NCBI GenBank assembly: GCA_000182565.2
Contig: KQ257459.1
From: Spizellomyces punctatus DAOM BR117
Taxonomy: Eukaryota
Length of the DNA: 64,000 bases
Reading direction: 5' to 3' (one strand)
In this document: piece after piece, positions 7,626-20,064 of the stretch
How positions within the stretch are numbered: position 1 is the stretch's first letter
Layout: every line of letters begins with the position of its first letter
Made by a program: the position numbers and the translations under genes
Notes under the pieces: model-generated
What the model saw: the letters and a program-made list of their open reading frames with translations, nothing else
What the model was told of the DNA's origin: nothing
Database searches by the model: none

Positions 7626-7740
7626 GAGCGCGATAACGAAGCCAGTTATTTAAACCACATCTCAGTTTGTTTCCTTTGGACTTTTACATATCTATCAAAC
7701 ATTTGAAAAGCATTCCTCAAATTTCAACTATCACTTTATC

Positions 7741-8565
7741 ATGCGTGTACTAGTAGTCGGCGGAACAGGAAACGTTGGAAAGCTCCTTCTTCAACAATTA
7801 CTAGAAAGAGGTGTCGAAGTACGGGCCATTGTTCGTTCCCCCGAAAGCATTCCTGCTACAATATCTGGCAATCCAAAACTATCTTTGATTGAAGCAAGTT
7901 TGCTGGATATTAGCGAGGATGAGTTGATCACTCACATCCGAGGGTGTGACGCTGTCATGTCGACCCTTGGGCATAATATGCACCTTGGTTCTATTCCTTT
8001 TCTTGGTACGCATGCATATACTTATCGCTCGTGGATTTGCGTGTATTAACCTTATTCAATGTTGGTTTATGCAGGAATCTGGGCGGCACCCCACGATTTG
8101 GTTCTGAGAGCTTCAAAAAACTTGTGCGGCGCAATTGAAAAAATCCGACCAGAAACACCCATAAAATTCATTCTCCTCAACACGGTTGGCGTCACCAACC
8201 CAGCAGGAACCGACGTTGGAGTGAGAAGCCGGACTGAGAGGGCAATATTCTGGACGCTCGAAGCTCTGATTCCTCCACATAAAGACAATGTCCGTGCTGC
8301 CGAGTACATCAACAAAGAGATTGGAACAGGAAATCAATTCATTGAGTGGACCGCTGTTCGCCCTGATGCCTTCATCGATGGAGACGTTAGCGAATACACC
8401 ACCCACGAATCAATCCAACATTCCCTTTTTGACGTTAACGACACCACAAAAGCAAACATTGCCCACTTTATGGCTGAATTGGCTACGAACCCCGAAACAT
8501 GGGCTACTTGGAAGGGCAAAATGCCAGTGATCATTGACGCGAAGCAGAAAAAGCAACATCAGTAA
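7741..8565 (+). CDS. NAD(P)H-binding atypical SDR (NAD_binding_10 / flavin-reductase-like), 2 exons
   Basis: Rossmann motif VLVVGGTGNVG, then RAIVRSPE, GCDAVMSTLG and EWTAVRP. Intron 8006-8074 joins the two ORFs in frame. Confidence 0.9.
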
Positions 8566-9554: not shown

Positions 9555-10839
9555 CTAGAAATCTTCCATCAAATAGCCTCGATCTTCATCCACGCCCGCG
9601 CTGGGCTCTTCACTATCAAAATATGCATCCGCATCGTCTTGCAGTGATTGATCGGAAAGGTCATACAGGGCGTTATTGTCCACCTACAGCAATCCCGCTT
9701 AGATGTGTCAACTACCAGAGCCATCCGTCATAACTTACGTTCGAATACTCAAAGTCACTCTAGCAATCAAGCAATGGTAGCATTGAGCATCTTCAGTGGG
9801 AGTTAAACGACATGTAAAGTGCGATGATTACCTCCTCTCCATCAATGAACCTAAGTCGCATCAGTGTGCGAAATTCCTCTGCTAATGCCTCCTTCTCCTC
9901 GTCTGATATTGGCCCTTCGTCCTCCCCCTCAGCCATTGTCGCTTCCAGATCGATGCTTTCGTCGACTTTTATAGCCCTTTTATTTTTCGATTCCAAATCC
10001 CTTTCCTCTTGCTGGTCCTGAACGTCCTCTTCCTCATCGGTATCAAACTCTTCAAATTGCTCCTCTTCAATCTCATGCTGGCGTCCGAGAGTTTCCAAAT
10101 GTGTGGCACGATCCATATTTGAATATATTCGGTCCACAAGAGTCATACTATCCGGGAATGCCTGCGGTGGCGGAAGATACCGACCTGTAATTAATGGCAT
10201 CAGCTGAGAATGGAATAAAATATGAAATCATCCTCGCTAGGTACCAATGTATTCCTCGTAAAGGGCTGGCTCACGGTCTTTGAAGGCATCATCGGAGAAG
10301 TATTCGTCGGACAGATTTTGATTCATATAATTGATTCTAGTGACAGACAACCATAATTGAGGAATAAACCCTTACATTAGTGTGGTAATGTTACATGTTC
10401 ACTGACCTCCGATTTCGAATCTGGGCTTTCGTCAGTGATCTACTGACACTTTGGTATTGATTCAGGTAGTATTTCACTTCATACTGATCTTTGGACAGAT
10501 TAGCGAGTAAACCAGAGTCCGGAGATTTTATTAACGTACCTGCAAACGGATGAAAAAACTCCAATTGTTGCGAACCCAAAAACTTTCCCCATTTCTCTTA
10601 TAGTAAATCAAAATCAAAAGATAAGACATGGAAGAGGGTAACAGACTAGCAGCCGTAAAGAACAGCTTTGGAGTAAGCTTACCGAGAAACAACCCTTTAT
10701 CTCGTTCTAGTGTACTCGATAGAATGGTACGTTGCAGTTCGGCTGTTGGGGGTTCTTCACCCAGACGCAGTGTTTTCAGGTTAAAGTCGGGATTGGACAG
10801 GAGATGATCTAATATTGCATGTACGGCGGTAGTATCCAT
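9555..10839 (-). CDS. CCDC97: CCDC97-like (DUF2052) protein
   Basis: Motifs GLFLEKWG, IRNRR, EYFSDDAFKDREPALYEEYIG, acidic tract, FRTLMRLRFIDGEE and DADAYFDSEEP across exons; stop TAG 9557-9555. Confidence 0.85.
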
Positions 10840-11445: not shown

Positions 11446-13404
11446 TTAGGCCTTCGCATAGACCTGAGGCACAGGCGGAACAGGAGGCGAATCCGGGTCC
11501 CAATACCACGCATCCCCGTCTTCCCCTATTCCAAATCGTCCATTTCCGTTGAAATCAAAAGTGACAATCATACCGCTACGTCGAGTGTCGGGAGAACGCA
11601 TACTTTTAACCTCGGGTAAACTCATTGGGGAGAGAGAAATTGTTCGTTCCGGAGGAACTGGTGGAGGAGGTGTGGTAGGTGCTGGGTATCGGGGCGGTTC
11701 TTTGTAAACTATATCGTCGCTCTTACGAGGCAAAGACTGAGACATTGGATTGGGTGGGAGTTCCGGTTGGGGTGGAAGTTGCATTTGGATCGGTAGTGGT
11801 GGGGGAGGTGGCGAGGGTGGTTGAGATTCAACGGCCGCCTTTTTCGAATCCAGCGAAAAAGAACGAAGCTTTCGAATCGGCTTTTGGTGTTTTAGTTTTT
11901 GTGTCAGGTTTTGTAGGGTGAATCGTTTATTCGAACCTGACGTCTTCTGAGAAGGTTGAGACTGCGTATTTTCGGTGGGTGTCGAGAAGGAAATCAAAGG
12001 GTCACGAGATAGTGTTGGACATTCAGACCGTATCGGAATGAGTGTTCGAGGAGCTTTGATGGGTGCGCCGTTAGCCACCTTGACCAAATCCGCTATCCAC
12101 ATTAACATATCCAATCTCGATTCTGCTGCAAAGTAGAACGGAATCGCATGCGAGCCGGTTCCCGGTTGAGGTGTGACGATTTTAAATGCGTATTGTGCCT
12201 TGTTGGAGCGGCTGGTCGTGCCCGTGCTGTTCCCACCAGAGTCATCAGGTAGCACGATGAGGTCCGGGGTGAGCATGATGATGGTCATTACGGTATTGTC
12301 CTGTTGGCCAAATCGGTTAATTGGGCAGGTTACGGAGCCATCTGGACGCAAACAATGCTCACCATTTGAGATTTGAGCACGTAAACATGCTCATTCTTCA
12401 ACAAGCACCAACGTCTTTTCCATGGACTGTCCCTGTCAACACGGAACAAAAGATGACCTTCCCGATCCGGATTCGTCAGCCCTTGTTCAGCCAACGTGCG
12501 AGGAGTGTCTACTGTTCGCGACTTTGACCGCGACAAGGTGCGAGCAAGGGTACCATTTCCAAAAATGGGTAAAAGCTTTGGTGATTTGGGTCTTCCTAAA
12601 CTTCCAGATCTATCCGACGACGTCTTGGAGCTCTTTGAACTCTTGCTGCTTTTCCTTGAAGCATGGTTGTCGCTTGTTGGCCATTCACTGCGCACACTCT
12701 CCGTAGTCAGGCTTCTTTCCAGTCTAGGTATTGGTGTGGCCTCGTCCATATTATACATATCCATTAGATCACACATTTGGACATGCATTGAATTTGTCCG
12801 CGACAGTGTTTGGGAACGACTCTCCTCCATCTCTTCAGGTTCCGAAGTGAAGAAGGTCTGATAGATGGAGCTCACTTTAATGTACTGCATGCAAGGATAA
12901 GGTTAACCAAAAATTTTGTGGGGCTGGATACACTCGTGTAGTACTACTAACCTGCTCTTGCTCCAAGGCCCCGGCCATGTCGCGTCCCGGAATTGGCGGC
13001 TCCTCTCCTTGAGGACTTCCAGTCAACGAAACCGACACACCCATCGCATGGCTCAAGGAGGCTTTGCGCGGTGGAACGGCAGAAGGCGCTTGTTTGGCAC
13101 GAGCATCGCCGTCCCTCTGATCCGCCGTACCACTACCGGACAGCAGTTTGATCAAGCCAGCCGCAAACTCGTCTTCCAATGATGGGTCTTGGTAAAGGTC
13201 TTCGCGGAGAGCTGCGCGCCGCGGGGATGACTTTGTGCGTGGAGGAATAGGAACGTCGGTAACAACATCTGGTCGACTTGGTAAAGGCTTTTGCATGCGC
13301 AGAAAGTCGGCAGCTGTCGACGTCGAATGTCCCAAATTCCCAAAGGTCGGCAGATATGGCGAGTTGGGAGGCATCGAGCGTCGCGGCAGTGTAAGTGACG
13401 ACAT
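11446..13404 (-). CDS. PH-domain protein with Pro/Ser-rich disordered flanks
   Basis: PH motifs PDREGHLLFR...WKRRWCLLK, YAFKIVTP...FYFAAESRLDMLMWIADL; polyproline tracts; three ORFs linked by introns. Confidence 0.85.
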
Positions 13405-14350
13405 TTTAACAATGCTCGGCTCTCCCGTCGTGACGATGCAATGCTTCTATTTTCTTTGTTTATTCTCAAGTGAATCGCCGTAAGCAACGCTTTTGTTTGT
13501 TTTGGAACGTCCGTTCGCCCAAGAAGCAGAGACGACAAAAGAACAAAAAGCACAGAGAGCTGCAACAAAAAGAAAGGCCTCCAAGCGATGCAGCCGCCAA
13601 GAAAAAGCGCAGTAAATCTAAATGTGTCTAACGTCTATACGCAAATAAAAAACGAGGCCAAAAAAACGTTATGAGATCTCAGAAATCAAAAGGCAAAAAC
13701 CCTCTACCCTTCCTTCTATTCTCCTTTCAGCCCCCCCTGTTCCTACGACGTTCTTCTTTGCAGGTGTTTCCTTGTTTTGGCGGCTGGCACTGGAAGAACC
13801 TCCTCCTCCAACAACTCACAACCAAGTCGCGTTATTTTAAAAACGGCTCAACGCGCGTCATGATTTTCATTAACCCTAAAAGGGCAATAGCAAAAGTTGG
13901 CGATGAGCGGAGTTTTAAAGCAAATGTAATTAAGGAGCAAGGGGATAATGAAAAGGAGATCAGGCTTGCCAATGCACATTAGGTTTGTTTGTAAGAGTTC
14001 GTCTGCGCAATGGAGCGGGGGTTGGAGACAACCAGCACGAGGTTGCATGTAATTATTCAATGACGGTCAGGGCTTTTGTTCAAATCCACCACTATGCGCG
14101 CGCTGGTGCAGTTTTTTGCTTTATCTGATGTATAGTTCCTTCAAAGTGCGAGCCCACCAGATGGGCCATACGCCAATCATCCGATGGCTGAATGTACTGC
14201 TCGTTGTATGGATTCGGATTCAATAAATATAAAAATGACATACATTGAAGAAAACATTTATAGATAGATACTCGAGACCTTTTCTCTCCCGTAACGTTTT
14301 TACCACTTTTCAGTAACTTTTCAGTTGCGAAATGACACGACATCACATGT

Positions 14351-16305
14351 TTAAACAGGGTCTTCGGTCTCAACTTGATATCCACTACTTGGTCCAATTG
14401 AATCTCTTCCGTCCTCGGGGGAGGGGCTCGGCATCATCTCTCTATGCTGATTATTAAGCAGGGTTGGCCGTCGCTCAGAGAACCGCTTGTTTTGCGAAAC
14501 CGCTCGCGCAAAGGTGATCACCATCTTGTGAAACGCTCGCTGAATCTGCCAGCTAGAAAAGGAGCGAGCGTCAGCGTCATCGCCAAAGTTGCGGGCGAAC
14601 AACGAGACGATACTTACAGCTCTGATATACGACTATACTGGGGCCGACGAACTCCAGACTCCTTATCGATATCTTGCTGCAAGACGTCTTGAAACTTGAA
14701 ATTGGCCAACATTCTCAAGTCCCGTGTAATTCGATGCAGCGCCTTTGCCAAAAAGAACGAAAACACAACCGCAACCGAACATCCAGCCACTACCACTCCA
14801 GCAACGATCGCGATCGTTTTACGATTGGCAGCTTGTAATTCGCCCATGATCGCATCACGGTTGATAAAAGCGATGATGGCCAAATCTGTGTTCGCTCGCT
14901 GAATTCTGCCAACCATCATACTGAACGTGCCACCCGATAATTCAAGCTCCACCGCCTCATTAGTTGGATGTATAGATAGCCAGTGGGAGAGAGAACCATC
15001 CGATTTTGTTTGCAGCAATTGATACAATGCAGCGGTGTCCTTATCCGTAACCGCAATTTCGGGTAAGGTCAGCGCTCGTACGGCCGCACCGTTCGAATCT
15101 AGTTCGTAGAGCTGGACATCTGGCTCAGATGAAGCCACGATCGTATCCGTCCCTCCGGCCATTTCAAATGCGTACAATAGGTTGTTGTACGGGATCGATG
15201 CTTTTGATTCCGCCAAGAGAGTTTGAATAAAGCTTAATGTAAGGTCCGCTCCGACAACACCTTGAATTGTGCCATGGTCGTCCGAAAAGACGCGAAGAAA
15301 ACTCTTCCATCCTTTATAGTCCCAAACTTGCACCGATGACCAATTGAACGCGTTGGCATTTGACACATCGATCGCCTTTCAAGAGCAACGTAGGATAAGG
15401 AATGTGACCCATATCTCCCGGTGCGTACAGTTGATGGCATTATACTCACTTGAACCCAGTAAGAATTGGTATTATTTTGGTTGAGGTCACTAGTCACAGG
15501 GCCGAGATTGGTTCCATTTGCGGCAACGTCCCAGGTGGTCAGATTCCCCCCATATTGTCGCCATAGGTGGTATTCTCTGACTGTTCCTTGTGTCGAAGTC
15601 GACGCTCCCCATAACTCACCCTCTGGAACGGTAGTAAAGTATTGAGTTGAGTAGAAATTGACGTTGGGAACGAGGACATTGAGCTGCAGCGATGCAGTTA
15701 AGAGATTGATTCGGGATGGAGCTTTTTGTCGCTATGCCAGCCACTCACCAATTTTTGGGTCGTGATATCCTTGTCTGCATACGTGGCCGCGGAGTAATAA
15801 CCCTGGCGAAAGTTAAGCACAGAGACTGCGGTTGATGCCTCTACTGCTAGAAAACGAACGGCAACATCCGAAACCTATGGAGTCGTGCTTACTTTAGATG
15901 AGCAGCCACAACTGTGATGACAAACGAGAAGCGTACCACTTGGTCAATAATTCGCCTCTGAAGAGCTTGTGCCAGAATAGTTGCCGAGTTCTTAAAGATG
16001 AAAAGACAATCAGTCGTCAAAACCCCGAATATGCGCAAACTTGGCAGACCTACCGTGGCGGCACGAAAAGTCAATCCCCATGCCAAAAAAGCGATCCCAG
16101 TTGCAAGCGACGTAATAAATGCAATCAAAATCAAACTGATCGGCGCCCTTCCACTCTTCAATCCCGTTATGAACCGGTGAAAGGTCCATACGCGGTTACT
16201 GAGGACCATTTCACCCTTGCTATTGAGGGACATGGTAGGGTCCGTCGTCGACGACCCGCCATTGACGGACTGCTCTGGTCTTCCTGGAGATCTACTCATA
16301 CTCAT
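14351..16305 (-). CDS. Two-TM membrane sensor: TM1 - extracellular dCache-like domain - TM2 - HAMP-like region - short tail, no output domain
   Basis: TM1 ISLILIAFITSLATGIAFLAWGLTF; Cache-like YWVQA...NWSSVQVW...VFSDDHGTIQGVVGADLTLSFIQ; TM2 TIAIVAGVVVAGCSVAVVFSFFLA; HAMP-like KALHRITRDLRMLANF...SRISELWQIQRAFHKM; stop 14351. Exons splice in frame. Confidence 0.8.
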
Positions 16306-17659
16306 AATCGTGTGTGATCAATTTTTGTAAAGGATAGGTACTGGAAAGGCAAGAAGAAGCTTTTGTCTTTTGGTGGGCTGTTGAGCAGCCTGGGTCGTAG
16401 AGTGCATGACATATCCCTCTTAATCATCCGTGGTAAATTACACAACAATCATGGTTCCTGGGGTAAAGGCATTGAAAGACACAAAAAATGTTAATCCTGA
16501 ATTTTGAATGGATGTTTGCCCTTCTTTGATACTGAAGATAATCGCACGCTGTCAGTATTTGAGAAGCTCCGCCGTTACATAAGCAGGTCTCCGCAAACAA
16601 CAAACGCTGACAGGTGCCACTTGAAATGGGAGACAGATGGGGCTATCTCCTAAATACAGTTGGATATGCCAACACTATCTTAACCTGCGCCCGTAAAGCG
16701 TCGGAGGCGTGATGTTTACCAGGAATGCTGTTCTTAGATTGGAATGCCACCATCGCACCCATGTCACGTTGCGACTTGACGACAATGACAACCCGTTGCA
16801 GAACAATGCTTCCACCCACTACTTTTCAAAGGCTCTCGTGAGAATAAACTATTCAAGGAGGGGTAAAAGGAAGGCGATGCGGGTTGAGGGATGTTTACAC
16901 GAGACCCGCATCAGGGCTGAAAATTGCGGAGCGTATTAGTCCAATGTTACCTTACCCCAAACCTTCATACCCATTGAATTTGTCGAACGGGCGTTCTCCG
17001 TTGCAACAACGCCCGCATTGTCAATTTCTTGGGGTTGAGTCCCGTGCTGTTTGTGTTTTGTAGGATGTCTTCTCCGATCTCATCAATGCGGCTAGCCCAG
17101 ATTCTCTTTCATTTAGAAAGGCTTGGCCATCGGCCCTCACAGTCCACTTCTCAAATAGGTCTATGGCCATGTGGTTTTAGAGCAATGCCCTTCCCTTCAT
17201 TCACTTTTCTAGGGTCCGTTCTATCGTGTGCTTTAGAACTATGACTTGCTCAGGCGGGACGGAATGTTAACAAGGTACGGCCAGCCACATGTCAAATCCA
17301 TCTCTGTTCAAGCATAACCTAGCAAAACAGTATACATTTACCCAGGTATTTCTGGCAATCAGCCCTGCCGTCGGTACGTCCATGAAGATGATTTCCACCT
17401 TCCCGCAGCTACAAGCAAAAAACAAAACGTTCACGGTGATCCAACTTGTTTCTTGAGAATATTTGACCAATATGTTCGCAACTGACTCTGATTTCTACCA
17501 AACATATCGTTGAATTCCTGTGTTATAACAGGCCAATTGCCGAGTTCGCCGTGTTTTTGAGCTAGCATTTGGAGAGCCTGCGTTCGGCATCAGACTAAGG
17601 TCGCTAAAAATGTCATCGCATCTATTGAGATAGGAAATATCCGAAATGGCAGTGATGGA

Positions 17660-17992
17660 TTCACATGCATACCGCTCGATTGCGAGTGCTCTCGGCTTCC
17701 ACTTTCTTTGCTTTCACTGGCTTTGGCTCCTGGGTGCCTGGTAAAAGTTGGTCCACATGATCTTGATTTTCATCAAGTTCGTTCTGGAGAATTCCATCTG
17801 GAGTGCTGCCAATACGATTGTCGTCGTTGGCGCCGACCACTTTCTTTGTTCTTTTCTTCTTCTTCTTTGGCTCTGATGATGTGCAAGTGCTTTCATTGCC
17901 ACGTACTCTTCAGGCTCAGCTTTCATAACCTTTCTTTTCTTCTTCTTCTTTGGCTCTGATGAGCTTTCCATCAAAGAATGATGCTTTTTCAA
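17660..17992 (-). pseudogene. Possible degraded coding relic (Lys-rich, duplicated SSEPKKKKKR, frameshifted)
   Basis: Two SSEPKKKKKR-encoding copies lie in different frames; protein-like text continues after a frame change (RTKKVVGANDDNRIGSTPDGILQNELDENQDH) and then hits stops. Confidence 0.3.
17849..17962. repeat. Perfect 31-bp direct repeat, 2 copies
   Basis: ttcttttcttcttcttctttggctctgatga at 17849-17879 and 17932-17962. Confidence 0.9.
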
Positions 17993-19004: not shown

Positions 19005-20064
19005 CTACTGATCGGGAGCCAACTCGTACTTTTCAATAACGTTTCTCATTTCCTTTGCTGATTTCTTTAGCAATTCTTCTTCTTCCTCTGTCAAAGGAGG
19101 TTTGAGGGTTTGCCTGACTCCGCTATGGCCTAGCACGACGGGGAAACTGAGGCAAACGTTGAGTTCGGGAATGTAGTGTGAGAGGGGACGGACGTGGCGG
19201 AGGTCAAAGATGATGCATTCGCAGATGGAGGCTGCTACACCGCCAATACTGTGGGCACATGAGGAGTTTGTTGGTGGGTGATCAATAGTCAAGTGAAAAC
19301 ATGAGATGTGTACTCACCCAAAATATGTGGCGCCCTTTGCTTCAATAATCTTGTATGCCTTATTCTTGACGTCCTCCGCCAACTTTTTCTTGTCGACCCC
19401 CTTCATTGCAGATAAACTCAACAAGGGCGTATTGGCGACATGAGCCGAGCTCCACGCGACAAACTGACTGTCACCATGTTCACCTAGGACGTAGGCATGC
19501 ACAGCAGTCTCTGCCACTTCCAGTCGCGATGAGAGTTCACTTCTCAGCCGCGCCGAGTCAAGGTATGTCCCAGATCCCAAGACTTGGCTTTGAGGCAATC
19601 CACTCAGTTTTTGTGCAAAATAAGTCAAAACATCAACAGGATTAGCAATGAGCAACAAAATTGCCGATTGCTTGAATGGTTTCATTGATTCTATGACGGA
19701 ACTCAGAATCGCTCGATTACGGCCAATGAGGTCCACACGGGTTTCACCGGGACGCTGCTTGGCCCCGGCAGTGATAATGACAATATCGCATTGCCCGGCT
19801 TCTTTGGGTGTACCCATCCTGACTTTGGTGTCCGACAGGAAAGCAGCGTCGGAAAGGTCCAAGACCTGGGCGGCACATTTTTCAGTGTCGAGATCAACTA
19901 GGAGGAGTTCCGAGGCGCAACGACGGAGGAGGATGGCATAGGCGGCCTAGATGGTTCAATGTATCAAGATATGCCCGTCTCTCTGCGTGATATTGATGAA
20001 TAACCAACGTTACCGTAGCACCAACACTTCCAGCTCCACCAATGATAGCAATCTTGGCCGGCAT
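19005..20064 (-). CDS. ldh: L-lactate dehydrogenase (NAD-dependent), 3 exons
   Basis: MPAKIAIIGGAGSVG; TAGAKQRPGETR (Gln specificity residue of LDH rather than the Arg of MDH); ANPVD; GSGTYLDSARLR; LGEHGDS; KGATYFGIG. Confidence 0.93.

Follow-up and report, generated by a model that had tools for sequence, protein, structure and literature searches.

Structure and transcription of the SPPG_05787 locus

Positions 14351 to 16305 of the window (the whole 64 kb stretch analysed, 64,000 nucleotides of contig KQ257459.1 from the soil chytrid Spizellomyces punctatus DAOM BR117) hold the whole coding sequence of SPPG_05787, a minus-strand gene that begins with an ATG at 16305, ends with a TAA at 14353-14351, and encodes 541 amino acids in six exons. 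The gene and the regions of its product are:

14351..16305, minus strand: coding sequence of SPPG_05787 (gene model; product matching the database protein; intron 4 spliced out in one contig of RNA run X1)
16305-16054, 15990-15937, 15874-15749, 15683-15450, 15375-14618 and 14552-14351, minus strand: the six exons (gene model)
16141..16305, minus strand: predicted N-terminal cytoplasmic segment, aa 1-55 (conserved columns; low-confidence structural model here)
16066..16140, minus strand: predicted first transmembrane helix, TM1, aa ~56-80 (hydrophobic windows starting at 53-62; within modelled helix 56-125)
14821..16065, minus strand: predicted extracytoplasmic double-Cache (dCache_1-like) domain, aa ~81-407, broken by introns 1-4 (AF2, Foldseek, VIA and family profile)
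14746..14820, minus strand: predicted second transmembrane helix, TM2, aa ~408-432 (hydrophobic windows starting at 407-418; within modelled helix 395-459)
14477..14745, minus strand: HAMP domain, aa ~433-500, comprising AS1, a long connector and AS2 (hhalign; 71% identity among orthologues)
14354..14476, minus strand: C-terminal tail, aa 501-541 (pLDDT <50; 13% orthologue identity)
14143..14350, minus strand: probable 3' UTR, with the transcript end within or near it (sense-read depth falling to 0 below 14143)

All five introns (63, 62, 65, 74 and 65 nt) have GT..AG borders and the predicted product is identical, letter for letter, to the deposited SPPG_05787 protein (P0001 in our sequence set), bearing out the clean splicing that an earlier sequence-only reading of this DNA had described. 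RNA coverage was thin (332 reads in a pool of four runs, with depth over the gene body mostly <2), and read orientation was calibrated on a CT..AC joint (17603/17673) in a minus-strand neighbour gene. At the 3' end, sense-read depth was 4.26 in the bins 14143-14353 and 14354-14564 and 0 in 13932-14142, the last sense-oriented reads lying about 200 nt beyond the stop codon, and reads of opposite orientation were present at a low level across 13299-14142. A rare isoform that splices farther downstream may exist.

The genes adjoining SPPG_05787 are PH-like and Myb-like. Pfam gave nothing for the open reading frame directly after its stop codon, and for the minus-strand gene that follows it gave a weak match to a PH domain (E 0.0012, 19.8 bits against a cut-off of 25.1). 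No kinase was found by Pfam in nine neighbouring open reading frames, the matches there being PH-like, Myb-like, LDH/MDH, NAD(P)-binding, CCDC97-like and DUF5092; eukaryotic gene order does not follow operon logic. Literature searches with the name SPPG_05787 returned no match, and the literature found on Cache domains in Spizellomyces and in Chytridiomycota held nothing on this gene and nothing relevant to its family, respectively.

A double-Cache ectodomain between two membrane helices

Exactly two hydrophobic segments were called in SPPG_05787 (19-residue windows with mean Kyte-Doolittle hydropathy >1.6; window starts at residues 53-62 and 407-418), and all four N-x-S/T sequons (aa 191, 200, 214 and 233) lie between them. 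The head preceding TM1 carries a conserved juxtamembrane motif (S.NS.GE...W...RF......GR.P, aa ~24-55), with G31, F45, R53, P55, S26, S29, R44 and G52 invariant or near-invariant in the family alignment. The protein contains one Cys in total and no CXXCH motif. The gene is intact and transcribed, and we hold with middling confidence that its product is a receptor with its N-terminus inside the cell and a predicted location in the plasma membrane.

In the AF2 model the ectodomain consists of a long helix (56-125) followed by two strand-rich modules, with pLDDT of 70-90 across most of its length. When it was compared by VIA with 50 listed entries, all 50 were dCache ligand-binding domains (Z 15.3-18.7), superposing 211-269 residues with an rmsd of 3.0-4.7 A at 7-19% identity to the solved domains. 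Foldseek with the ectodomain gave 111 matches at E <=1e-3, with E values of 1e-7 to 1e-5 among them, and a profile built from 12 family sequences matched Pfam-positive bacterial dCache_1 receptors (E 1e-13 to 1e-9). Modelling had been suggested as a check on the Cache fold proposed from sequence alone, and the ectodomain did model as a double Cache, with Foldseek and VIA both returning dCache matches. The threshold for PF02743 (dCache_1) was not reached: exon 5 alone scored 12.8 bits (E 0.086) where 45 are required, and the whole protein gave no dCache_1 row in Pfam at E up to 0.1. A profile search of the PDB returned 5c2m_A (E 7e-4), a repeat match within the ectodomain that we judged irrelevant, and four other rows at E 1.1.

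The ligand is unlikely to be recognised as it is in PctA, in which R126 and W128 make up the R-x-W motif (accessible part of PMC13267403). This motif marks dCache_1AA, the subclass that binds amino acids, AI-2 or MHF. At the corresponding site six family rows read S-Y-W, G-Y-W, A-P-W, E-P-M, G-Q-W and L-W-I, with Arg in none of the six, the register being inferred from the motif itself in an alignment to eight bacterial receptors (R-P-W or R-Y-W) other than PctA. With the Arg missing, we rejected the reading as a PctA-type amino-acid sensor.

A HAMP-like region followed by a short tail

Profile comparison indicates that the region after TM2 is homologous to HAMP. Aligned profile to profile with hhalign, this segment matched HAMP over 46 of 53 template columns (probability 92.9, P 3.7e-7; probability 94.7 when the TM flank was included), as compared with P 0.054 for the reversed control and P 0.044-0.72 for all eight column shuffles. 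This was the profile check that the sequence-only reading had called for, and shuffled and reversed controls alike remained at P >=0.044. Both AS1 and AS2 keep the register of bacterial HAMP, while the connector between them exceeds the usual length by 9-13 residues; the phase-2 intron 5 (14553-14617) interrupts the coding region of the HAMP. An HMM of 38 bacterial HAMP segments, run against 62 family sequences, gave weak but consistently placed matches (E 0.01 for P0001), and Pfam HAMP (PF00672) gave no row at E up to 0.1 in any of 12 homologues, SPPG_05787 included. Since Pfam calls neither dCache_1 nor HAMP, the layout rests on fold and profile evidence; on that evidence (two TM segments, VIA Z 15.3-18.7, hhalign P 3.7e-7) the TM-Cache-TM-HAMP arrangement originally proposed stands.

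After TM2, AF2 places a helix (395-459), a coil (460-470) and a second helix (471-501). The model is a monomer with pLDDT <50 for the HAMP segment 442-475, and a four-helix HAMP dimer therefore remains predicted; a homodimer prediction for residues 396-510, run without an alignment and without controls, scored 0.01, a value that weighs neither for nor against the dimer. The SRIxE...AF..M pattern, previously likened to HAMPs that precede cyclases, is a general AS2 motif of HAMP and not specific to cyclases, although the nearest output-bearing relatives of SPPG_05787 are indeed dCache-HAMP cyclases, as described below.

The tail beyond the HAMP is disordered and rich in Ser, Pro, Glu and Gly, in keeping with the low-complexity end noted earlier, but at 41 residues it is slightly shorter than the roughly 50 first estimated. 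It is poorly conserved except for its acidic end (..ETEDPV). A C-terminal Val is found in 15 of 46 family rows, implying that the C-terminus itself is conserved, and these 46 rows extend past the end of the family profile by a median of 24 and a maximum of 85 residues. The acidic, Val-ending tail may resemble C-terminal valine ER-export or PDZ-type motifs.

SPPG_05787 itself carries neither an enzymatic nor an adaptor output. No Pfam row for a cyclase, kinase, GGDEF, EAL or MCP domain appeared at E up to 0.1 in SPPG_05787 or its close homologues (P0001-P0012), confirming the absence of cyclase, kinase, GGDEF and MCP domains from this protein that had been noted by eye. An output domain was likewise found in none of the 12 close homologues and none of 50 further representatives (P0013-P0062), and a search for longer homologues at 442-2000 aa recovered only 12 proteins of 450-545 aa. 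When the cyclase receptors P0063, P0084, P0064, P0164, P0091, P0097 and P0147 were used as tblastn queries against the 64 kb window, they matched only the Cache region of SPPG_05787 or nothing, and receptors with HK (P0087), GGDEF-EAL (P0093) and SpoIIE (P0105) outputs gave zero matches there.

Conservation, distribution and origin of the family

Conservation is distributed unevenly along the protein. Identity to six orthologues was 0.71 in the HAMP, 0.30 in the dCache and 0.13 in the tail, and residues 428-475 hold 19 of the 45 invariant columns of the family alignment. A DK.SG..RP.YS stretch of the HAMP is among the conserved sequence. Architecture and stop position are common to named homologues from three chytrid orders, which, together with sense reads that end just past the stop codon, agrees with the initial impression that the gene is not decayed. 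The family profile retrieved 39 clusters (50% identity) at E <=1e-30, and the ESM Atlas cluster of SPPG_05787 has 76 members, for 71 of which a phylum is recorded, most commonly Chytridiomycota.

Of the relatives that do carry an output, the nearest are class III cyclases of the dCache-HAMP type from chytrids, among them P0063 (Borealophlyctis) and P0164 (Fimicolochytrium). The representatives examined comprised 62 without output and 6 cyclase forms, and named matches from Borealophlyctis nickersoniae included eight output-less proteins and one cyclase form. In a tree rooted on 22 bacterial rows, 52 eukaryote-like rows fell on one side (SH-aLRT 99), where the cyclase forms either sit at the base of an output-less clade of 44 rows (support 89, not starred) or share a polytomy with it; the output-less rows P0044 and P0059 lie outside that clade. 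The tree comes from a fast procedure whose only support values are SH-aLRT, its bacterial outgroup was chosen by hand, and most of its representatives are unnamed.

Read by eye, AS2 of P0064 and P0084 leads straight into the cyclase linker, and in SPPG_05787 the sequence conserved in the family fades right after AS2. Alignment of the family profile with the cyclase forms stops at profile position ~440-455 and so does not span the HAMP, implying that the HAMPs have diverged. As judged from these alignments and the tree, the chytrid family shares ancestry with the bacterial-type dCache-HAMP class III cyclase receptors that chytrids still possess, and most likely arose through loss of everything past the HAMP. 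The five spliceosomal introns, and the branch (SH-aLRT 99) that separates the eukaryote-like rows from the sampled bacteria, argue against a recent horizontal transfer from bacteria, which we rejected.

Comparison with known Cache and HAMP systems

Bacterial dCache_1-HAMP receptors (PctA, PctD, Tlp3, TlpQ and McpB, as well as sensor kinases and GGDEF and cyclase receptors) share with SPPG_05787 the topology TM-dCache-TM-HAMP, the dCache fold (Z 15.3-18.7) and HAMP homology at the profile level. In contrast to them, SPPG_05787 is a eukaryotic gene with five introns, misses the Pfam thresholds, belongs to a family in which the Arg of R-x-W is missing from all six rows inspected, has a connector 9-13 residues longer, and is without an MCP, kinase, GGDEF, cyclase or phosphatase module.

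A closer match in layout is found in the Cache_heme-HAMP (CHH) receptors of Pseudomonas azotoformans and other proteobacteria, whose HAMP is described, in the accessible part of a preprint, as "uncoupled from intrinsic enzymatic output" (bioRxiv 10.64898/2026.05.25.727664). According to the same part of that source, a Ser/Thr kinase docks on the HAMP through helical repeat modules, and the ligand alters phosphorylation of a HAMP threonine (bioRxiv 10.64898/2026.05.25.727664). Among the sources as available, this is the only description found of such a HAMP that a separate kinase both docks on and phosphorylates. As far as the available text goes, CHH receptors resemble SPPG_05787 in having a periplasmic or extracellular Cache and TM helices and in ending, as far as domains go, with the HAMP, but they are bacterial, with a single Cache that carries a heme c CXXCH insertion and a partner found through operon linkage, whereas SPPG_05787 is a chytrid protein whose Cache is double, which has a single Cys and lacks CXXCH, and for which no such linkage exists.

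Among eukaryotes, the dCache-HAMP class III cyclases (P0063, P0164, P0064 and P0084) fall with SPPG_05787 on the eukaryote-like side of the split from bacteria (support 99). The chytrid cyclase receptors are like it in their homologous sensor, their HAMP-like AS1/AS2 and, where named, their fungal class; they carry Guanylate_cyc (PF00211; E 1e-17 to 1e-28), whereas SPPG_05787 does not and ends where the cyclase linker begins. A Cache adenylate cyclase has been noted in Naegleria, and fungal Cache domains are said to be limited to histidine kinases, in the accessible portion of PMC4822843; dCache_1AA proteins are reported as absent from fungi in that of PMC8915833. The position of this family below the Pfam thresholds would explain its omission from Cache surveys.

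The metazoan alpha2delta and CACHD1 proteins are also eukaryotic dCache proteins without enzymatic output and act through another membrane protein (PMC8915833, accessible portion). Unlike SPPG_05787, in which Pfam found no VWA match, they contain a VWA within the dCache, lack a HAMP and are anchored in the membrane in another way. NPR-C is a member of a cyclase-receptor family with a ligand-binding ectodomain and a short tail but no cyclase, and is a conceptual parallel only, being unrelated to SPPG_05787 in fold and lineage.

A receptor whose HAMP may be read in trans

We propose, with moderate confidence, that SPPG_05787 is a ligand sensor that has lost its cyclase and whose HAMP is read in trans by a separate partner protein. 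A small ligand, other than a PctA-type amino acid, would bind the fast-evolving dCache; the signal would pass the membrane through TM2 and switch the conformation of a dimeric HAMP; and a separate cytoplasmic or membrane partner would dock on the almost invariant HAMP surface and the long connector, reading the HAMP state and possibly phosphorylating the HAMP. Signalling in trans is plausible, and is favoured because the HAMP is by far the most conserved region (71%, against 30% for the ectodomain) and because a bacterial precedent exists. The conservation of the HAMP could instead reflect a structural or dimerisation constraint, and not a partner surface. An extension of this proposal, about which we are doubtful, is that the family constitutes a set of chytrid chemoreceptors in which varied dCache domains would receive different cues from soil or host and one common cytoplasmic partner would dock on, and perhaps phosphorylate, the nearly invariant HAMP with its long connector, a eukaryotic counterpart of the CHH-kinase pair reached through loss of a cyclase.

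Another use for an output-less receptor, which we regard as rather unlikely, is that of a modulator or pseudo-receptor that heterodimerises with a dCache-HAMP-cyclase paralogue or competes for its ligand, thereby tuning or silencing cNMP production, much like receptor variants in which the catalytic domain is missing. Cyclase-bearing relatives in chytrids do have the sensor and a HAMP-like linker in common with the family, no relatives with an output lie closer in the tree, and the two kinds co-occur in Borealophlyctis nickersoniae; moreover, chytrid rhodopsin-guanylyl cyclases are reportedly active as homo- and heterodimers. However, output-less forms are far commoner than cyclase forms (62 versus 6 representatives), the HAMPs of the two groups have diverged (the profile stops at ~440-455), and no S. 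punctatus cyclase paralogue was among the proteins retrieved by our word-limited searches. Class III cyclases require two catalytic domains, and a heterodimer with a single one would therefore be inactive. It is less probable still that SPPG_05787 is a surface protein that does not signal, serving in binding or clearance, adhesion or trafficking, with the HAMP as a dimerising stalk and the tail as a sorting signal. Such a role would suit the absence of an output domain and the acidic, Val-ending tail in 15 of 46 rows, and metazoan alpha2delta dCache proteins are auxiliary subunits without enzymatic output (accessible part of PMC8915833). Yet a mere stalk needs no 71% identity over 72 residues, connector included, beside an ectodomain at 30%, and HAMP is recognised only as a signal relay.

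The absence of an output domain might also be an artefact of annotation, with the true transcript reaching such a domain downstream or elsewhere. The thin RNA coverage and the low-level opposite-orientation reads across 13299-14142 leave some room for this, as do several homologue models that are wrong at this point, breaking off with '..RI(A/S)EL' at the very donor site of intron 5. We nevertheless consider a mis-annotated 3' end very improbable: the stop position and acidic ..V end are common to Geranomyces and other genera at ~40% identity, sense reads end at ~14143, the following minus-strand frames yield just the weak PH-domain match, tblastn found no output domain in the 64 kb window, and no longer forms were found among the homologues. 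Equally little credence attaches to a decaying, functionless remnant of a cyclase receptor, if anything slightly less. SPPG_05787 does lack a domain that its nearest output-bearing relatives possess, but its frame is intact over six exons, the gene is transcribed and spliced, the same architecture recurs in multiple paralogues and orthologues from three chytrid orders, and the HAMP is under strong purifying conservation.

Elsewhere, HAMP passes signals between domains within a single protein, the one uncoupled mechanism described, in the portion of the source available, being that reported from bacteria in 2026 (bioRxiv 10.64898/2026.05.25.727664). If this eukaryotic family follows the same logic, it would offer a tractable system for a HAMP that communicates with a separate protein. 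If located on zoospores, these proteins would become candidates for the receptors behind chytrid chemotaxis, and the chemoreceptor-set reading, if true, would give a first molecular handle on zoospore chemotaxis. To our knowledge no chytrid chemotaxis receptor has been described. S. punctatus can be cultured and is transformable.

Gene structure and transcription

SPPG_05787 is a previously annotated but uncharacterised gene: the product of its six-exon frame was identical to the stored NCBI protein 'uncharacterized protein SPPG_05787 [Spizellomyces punctatus DAOM BR117]' (its UniRef name begins 'Cache domain-con...'). The extent assigned to it in the sequence-only reading (14351–16305) was therefore exact, and the clean splicing claimed there was also recovered, with GT..AG borders in 5 of 5 introns. 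In an excerpt of its source, the S. punctatus genome annotation is described as combining predictors with RNA-Seq (PMC4991717).

Features of SPPG_05787 and its neighbours (window coordinates)
14351–16305, minus strand: SPPG_05787 coding sequence, ATG at 16305 and TAA at 14353–14351, six exons, 541 aa
16305–16054, 15990–15937, 15874–15749, 15683–15450, 15375–14618 and 14552–14351, minus strand: the six exons, separated by five introns of 63, 62, 65, 74 and 65 nt
11446–13446, minus strand: ORFs with a weak, sub-threshold PH-domain match (E 0.0012), the next minus-strand ORFs past SPPG_05787
17431–17700, minus strand: Myb-like gene, intron 17604–17672 spliced in 5 reads
19314–19946, minus strand: lactate/malate dehydrogenase
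7654–8565, plus strand: NAD(P)-binding protein
9793–10227, minus strand: CCDC97-like protein

No signalling output or obvious partner was found among these neighbours. A contig from one RNA run (X1) joins 15374 to 15449, removing intron 4; it represents a close relative or another strain, because it carries three base differences. From the pooled raw reads of four runs (X9), 332 were placed on the window. Reads across the 17603/17673 joint (CT..AC) of the Myb-like neighbour, a minus-strand gene, had their first mate on the minus strand, so this orientation marks minus-strand RNA, at least in those runs. Depth in this orientation was 4.26 in 14354–14564, 4.26 in 14143–14353 and 0 in 13932–14142, as expected if the transcript ended some 200 nt beyond the SPPG_05787 stop. 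Coverage is thin, and rare isoforms may exist. Reads of the opposite orientation covered exon 1 and the 5' flank (16042–16674; depths 6.98, 23.4 and 4.76; 0 beyond 16675). They could be plus-strand antisense or promoter-associated RNA ending near 16674, or they could mark the 5' end of SPPG_05787 itself, if one run of the four has the opposite strandedness.

A double-Cache ectodomain

Only two hydrophobic segments (TM1 and TM2) were detected, as 19-residue windows of mean hydropathy > 1.6 starting at residues 53–62 and 407–418. All four N-x-S/T sequons (191, 200, 214 and 233) lie between them, which agrees with a predicted topology that has the N-terminus inside the cell and the middle part outside it. 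Before TM1, at about residues 24–55 (window 16141–16236), lies a conserved cytoplasmic juxtamembrane motif, S.NS.GE...W...RF......GR.P, in which G31, F45, R53 and P55 are invariant in an alignment of 12 members of the chytrid family. Bacterial receptors of the dCache-HAMP type usually have few residues before TM1.

Pfam searches of five exon translations returned a single row, dCache_1 (E 0.086; 12.8 bits against a cut-off of 45), and nothing reached the curated cut-off in whole SPPG_05787 or 11 close homologues. Below threshold, these 12 proteins matched MCP-like_PDC_1 (6/12), dCache_1 (2/12) and HAMP (0/12). Despite the unmet Pfam threshold, the fold of the ectodomain and its remote homology to bacterial dCache_1 are established, on the grounds of Foldseek, structural realignment, profile search and the ESM Atlas. 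An AlphaFold2 model based on the 12-sequence alignment (mean pLDDT 67.3; 70–90 across most of residues 60–430) shows a long helix (56–125) followed by two strand-rich modules. Foldseek against the PDB gave 111 matches at E ≤ 1e-3, headed by the dCache ligand-binding domains of PctD, Tlp3, PctA and TlpQ (E 1e-7 to 1e-5). Realignment of the 1000 best Foldseek chains over residues about 79–405 yielded double-Cache sensor domains in all 50 listed entries (Z 15.3–18.7, rmsd 3.0–4.7 Å, 211–269 residues aligned). The 12-homologue profile retrieved 870 proteins at E ≤ 1e-3 from 1.84 billion representatives; of the 73 ranked 86–158, 42 have an output recognised by Pfam (kinase, GGDEF/EAL, class III cyclase or SpoIIE; profile E 1e-13 to 1e-9), and in most of these 42 dCache_1 and HAMP are Pfam-positive too. 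An ESM Atlas search gave the same kind of result.

At the R-x-W site (residue numbering from an excerpt of PMC13267403), eight bacterial receptors of the alignment read R-P-W or R-Y-W, and six family rows inspected read S-Y-W, G-Y-W, A-P-W, E-P-M, G-Q-W and L-W-I. With the Arg in 0/6 of these rows, a PctA-type amino acid is an improbable ligand.

A conserved HAMP after TM2

The segment following TM2 was compared, as family residues 429–500 (51 of 67 rows were long enough and were used), with an alignment of 38 Pfam-called HAMP segments from bacterial hits. The profile–profile match (hhalign) had a probability of 92.9 and P 3.7e-7 over 46 of 53 template columns, with both HAMP helices (AS1 and AS2) in register; the reversed template gave P 0.054, eight column shuffles P 0.044–0.72, and adding the TM2 flank raised the probability to 94.7. 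The family connector is 9–13 residues above the usual length, and in the monomer model the segment is a helix, a coil (460–470) and a helix, at low confidence. On this profile evidence the segment is a HAMP; the dimeric four-helix bundle, by which a working HAMP is defined, is putative here. Both the dCache ectodomain and the HAMP proposed in the sequence-only reading were thus recovered, the former as a modelled fold and the latter as a profile match, and we consider the architecture of SPPG_05787 very likely to be correct.

Mean identity of SPPG_05787 to six full-length orthologues, by region
N-terminus, residues 1–55: 0.29
TM1, residues 56–82: 0.45
dCache, residues 83–398: 0.30
TM2, residues 399–428: 0.47
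HAMP, residues 429–500: 0.71
Tail, residues 501–541: 0.13

Invariant columns of the 12-row alignment were concentrated in residues 428–475 (19 of 45). Receptor families converging on a single downstream machine show this pattern: the sensor varies and the cytoplasmic module stays constant.

Absence of an output domain across the family

The absence of an output domain, also claimed from the sequence alone, is a trait of the whole family: no signalling output family was found in SPPG_05787 and its 11 close homologues (P0001–P0012) or in 50 further representatives by profile-search rank (P0013–P0062), that is, 0/62. Within the 64 kb window, tblastn of cyclase, kinase, GGDEF-EAL and SpoIIE receptors matched the SPPG_05787 Cache region only, or nothing. 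Tests for the domains that define the MCP, kinase, GGDEF and cyclase receptor classes were negative, which places SPPG_05787 outside all of them. A search limited to relatives of 442–2000 aa found only 12, of 450–545 aa. Beyond AS2, SPPG_05787 has 41 residues at pLDDT < 50, and the 46 family rows reaching AS2 extend past the family profile by a median of 24 residues (maximum 85).

Six homologue models (P0005, P0006, P0009, P0011, P0016 and P0022) stop at '..RI(A/S)EL', the point where the phase-2 donor of intron 5 (CT|GTAAGT; intron 14553–14617) reads through to TAA in S. punctatus. They are probably annotation truncations from an unrecognised intron; if so, the position of intron 5 is conserved between chytrid orders.

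Relatives and origin

The named homologues that lack an output belong to Spizellomyces, Geranomyces and Gaertneriomyces, which we take to be Spizellomycetales, and to Borealophlyctis (Rhizophlyctidales) and Phlyctochytrium arcticum (Chytridiales in NCBI). Named paralogues number at least eight in B. nickersoniae and at least two in S. punctatus (SPPG_05787 and SPPG_02651). The 381-aa model of SPPG_02651 (P0018), outside the window, starts mid-ectodomain without N-terminus and TM1, and is probably 5'-truncated. P0056 (1057 aa) carries the family region at 593–1043, after a 590-residue low-complexity N-terminal extension without Pfam match; this may reflect a fusion in the gene model, or else a long cytoplasmic head in this member. 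The ESM Atlas cluster of SPPG_05787 has 76 members (phylum recorded for 71, Chytridiomycota commonest). Bacterial clusters from the same search (rows 2, 6 and 7; 361–437 aa) bear a Cache or HAMP domain label; some of their members have dCache_1 and HAMP, and an output family is listed for none. These may be genuine output-less dCache-HAMP proteins, or fragments.

The first output-bearing representatives are class III cyclases (P0063, P0064, P0084, P0098 and P0120). P0063 is a B. nickersoniae protein, and P0164, related to it, belongs to Fimicolochytrium jonesii. In P0064 and P0084 the cyclase linker starts directly after AS2. A quick maximum-likelihood tree (LG+G4; 468 columns; SH-aLRT the only support) of 74 rows (46 output-less, 6 cyclase-bearing and 22 bacterial), rooted on the bacteria, split these from the remaining rows (SH-aLRT 99). 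P0084 was basal. The other cyclase forms, a clade of 44 output-less rows (support 89) and two further, stray rows without an output together made up a polytomy. The simplest reading of this provisional tree would be that a eukaryotic dCache-HAMP-cyclase lost everything past the HAMP and that the truncated form then diversified. Excerpts of two surveys describe fungal Cache as limited to histidine kinases, with one Cache adenylate cyclase in Naegleria (PMC4822843), and dCache_1AA as absent from fungi (PMC8915833); no description of the chytrid dCache-HAMP family was found in open-access main texts.

Possible modes of signalling

SPPG_05787 works like the front end of bacterial dCache_1-HAMP receptors, and it shares a common logic with bacterial Cache_heme-HAMP (CHH) receptors. 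According to an excerpt of a 2026 preprint, the latter are 'uncoupled from intrinsic enzymatic output', their HAMP binds a Ser/Thr kinase at nanomolar affinity, and a threonine of the HAMP becomes more phosphorylated once ligand is bound (bioRxiv 10.64898/2026.05.25.727664). SPPG_05787 is, however, not a CHH protein, because CXXCH is absent and its Cache is double. Since the HAMP is the conserved part, and by analogy with CHH receptors, the most likely reading, held with about as much doubt as confidence, is signalling in trans: SPPG_05787 would sense a ligand outside the cell, and a separate partner would meet the ligand-dependent state of its HAMP. A place in a zoospore chemosensory system, as suggested in the sequence-only reading, is a hypothetical setting for such signalling. 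That SPPG_05787 instead modulates cyclase-bearing paralogues, by forming heterodimers with them or competing for ligand, seems unlikely to us.

A mis-annotated 3' end is very improbable: the conserved C-terminus of the family speaks for a real stop, and Pfam found no match in the ORF directly past it. We give slightly less credence still to a decaying remnant, the exons being cleanly spliced. Less far-fetched than these two, and nonetheless improbable, is a surface function without signalling, in which the tail would act as a sorting signal. Val is the C-terminal residue in 15 of 46 family rows (background frequency 0.077; binomial tail 1e-6, the rows being phylogenetically non-independent), usually after acidic residues or Ser (..EDPV, ..EEHV, ..AESV, ..ESQV, ..DSEV), and such an acidic ..V terminus presumably resembles a C-terminal sorting or PDZ-type motif. 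SPPG_05787 itself ends in ..ETEDPV (window 14354–14371).
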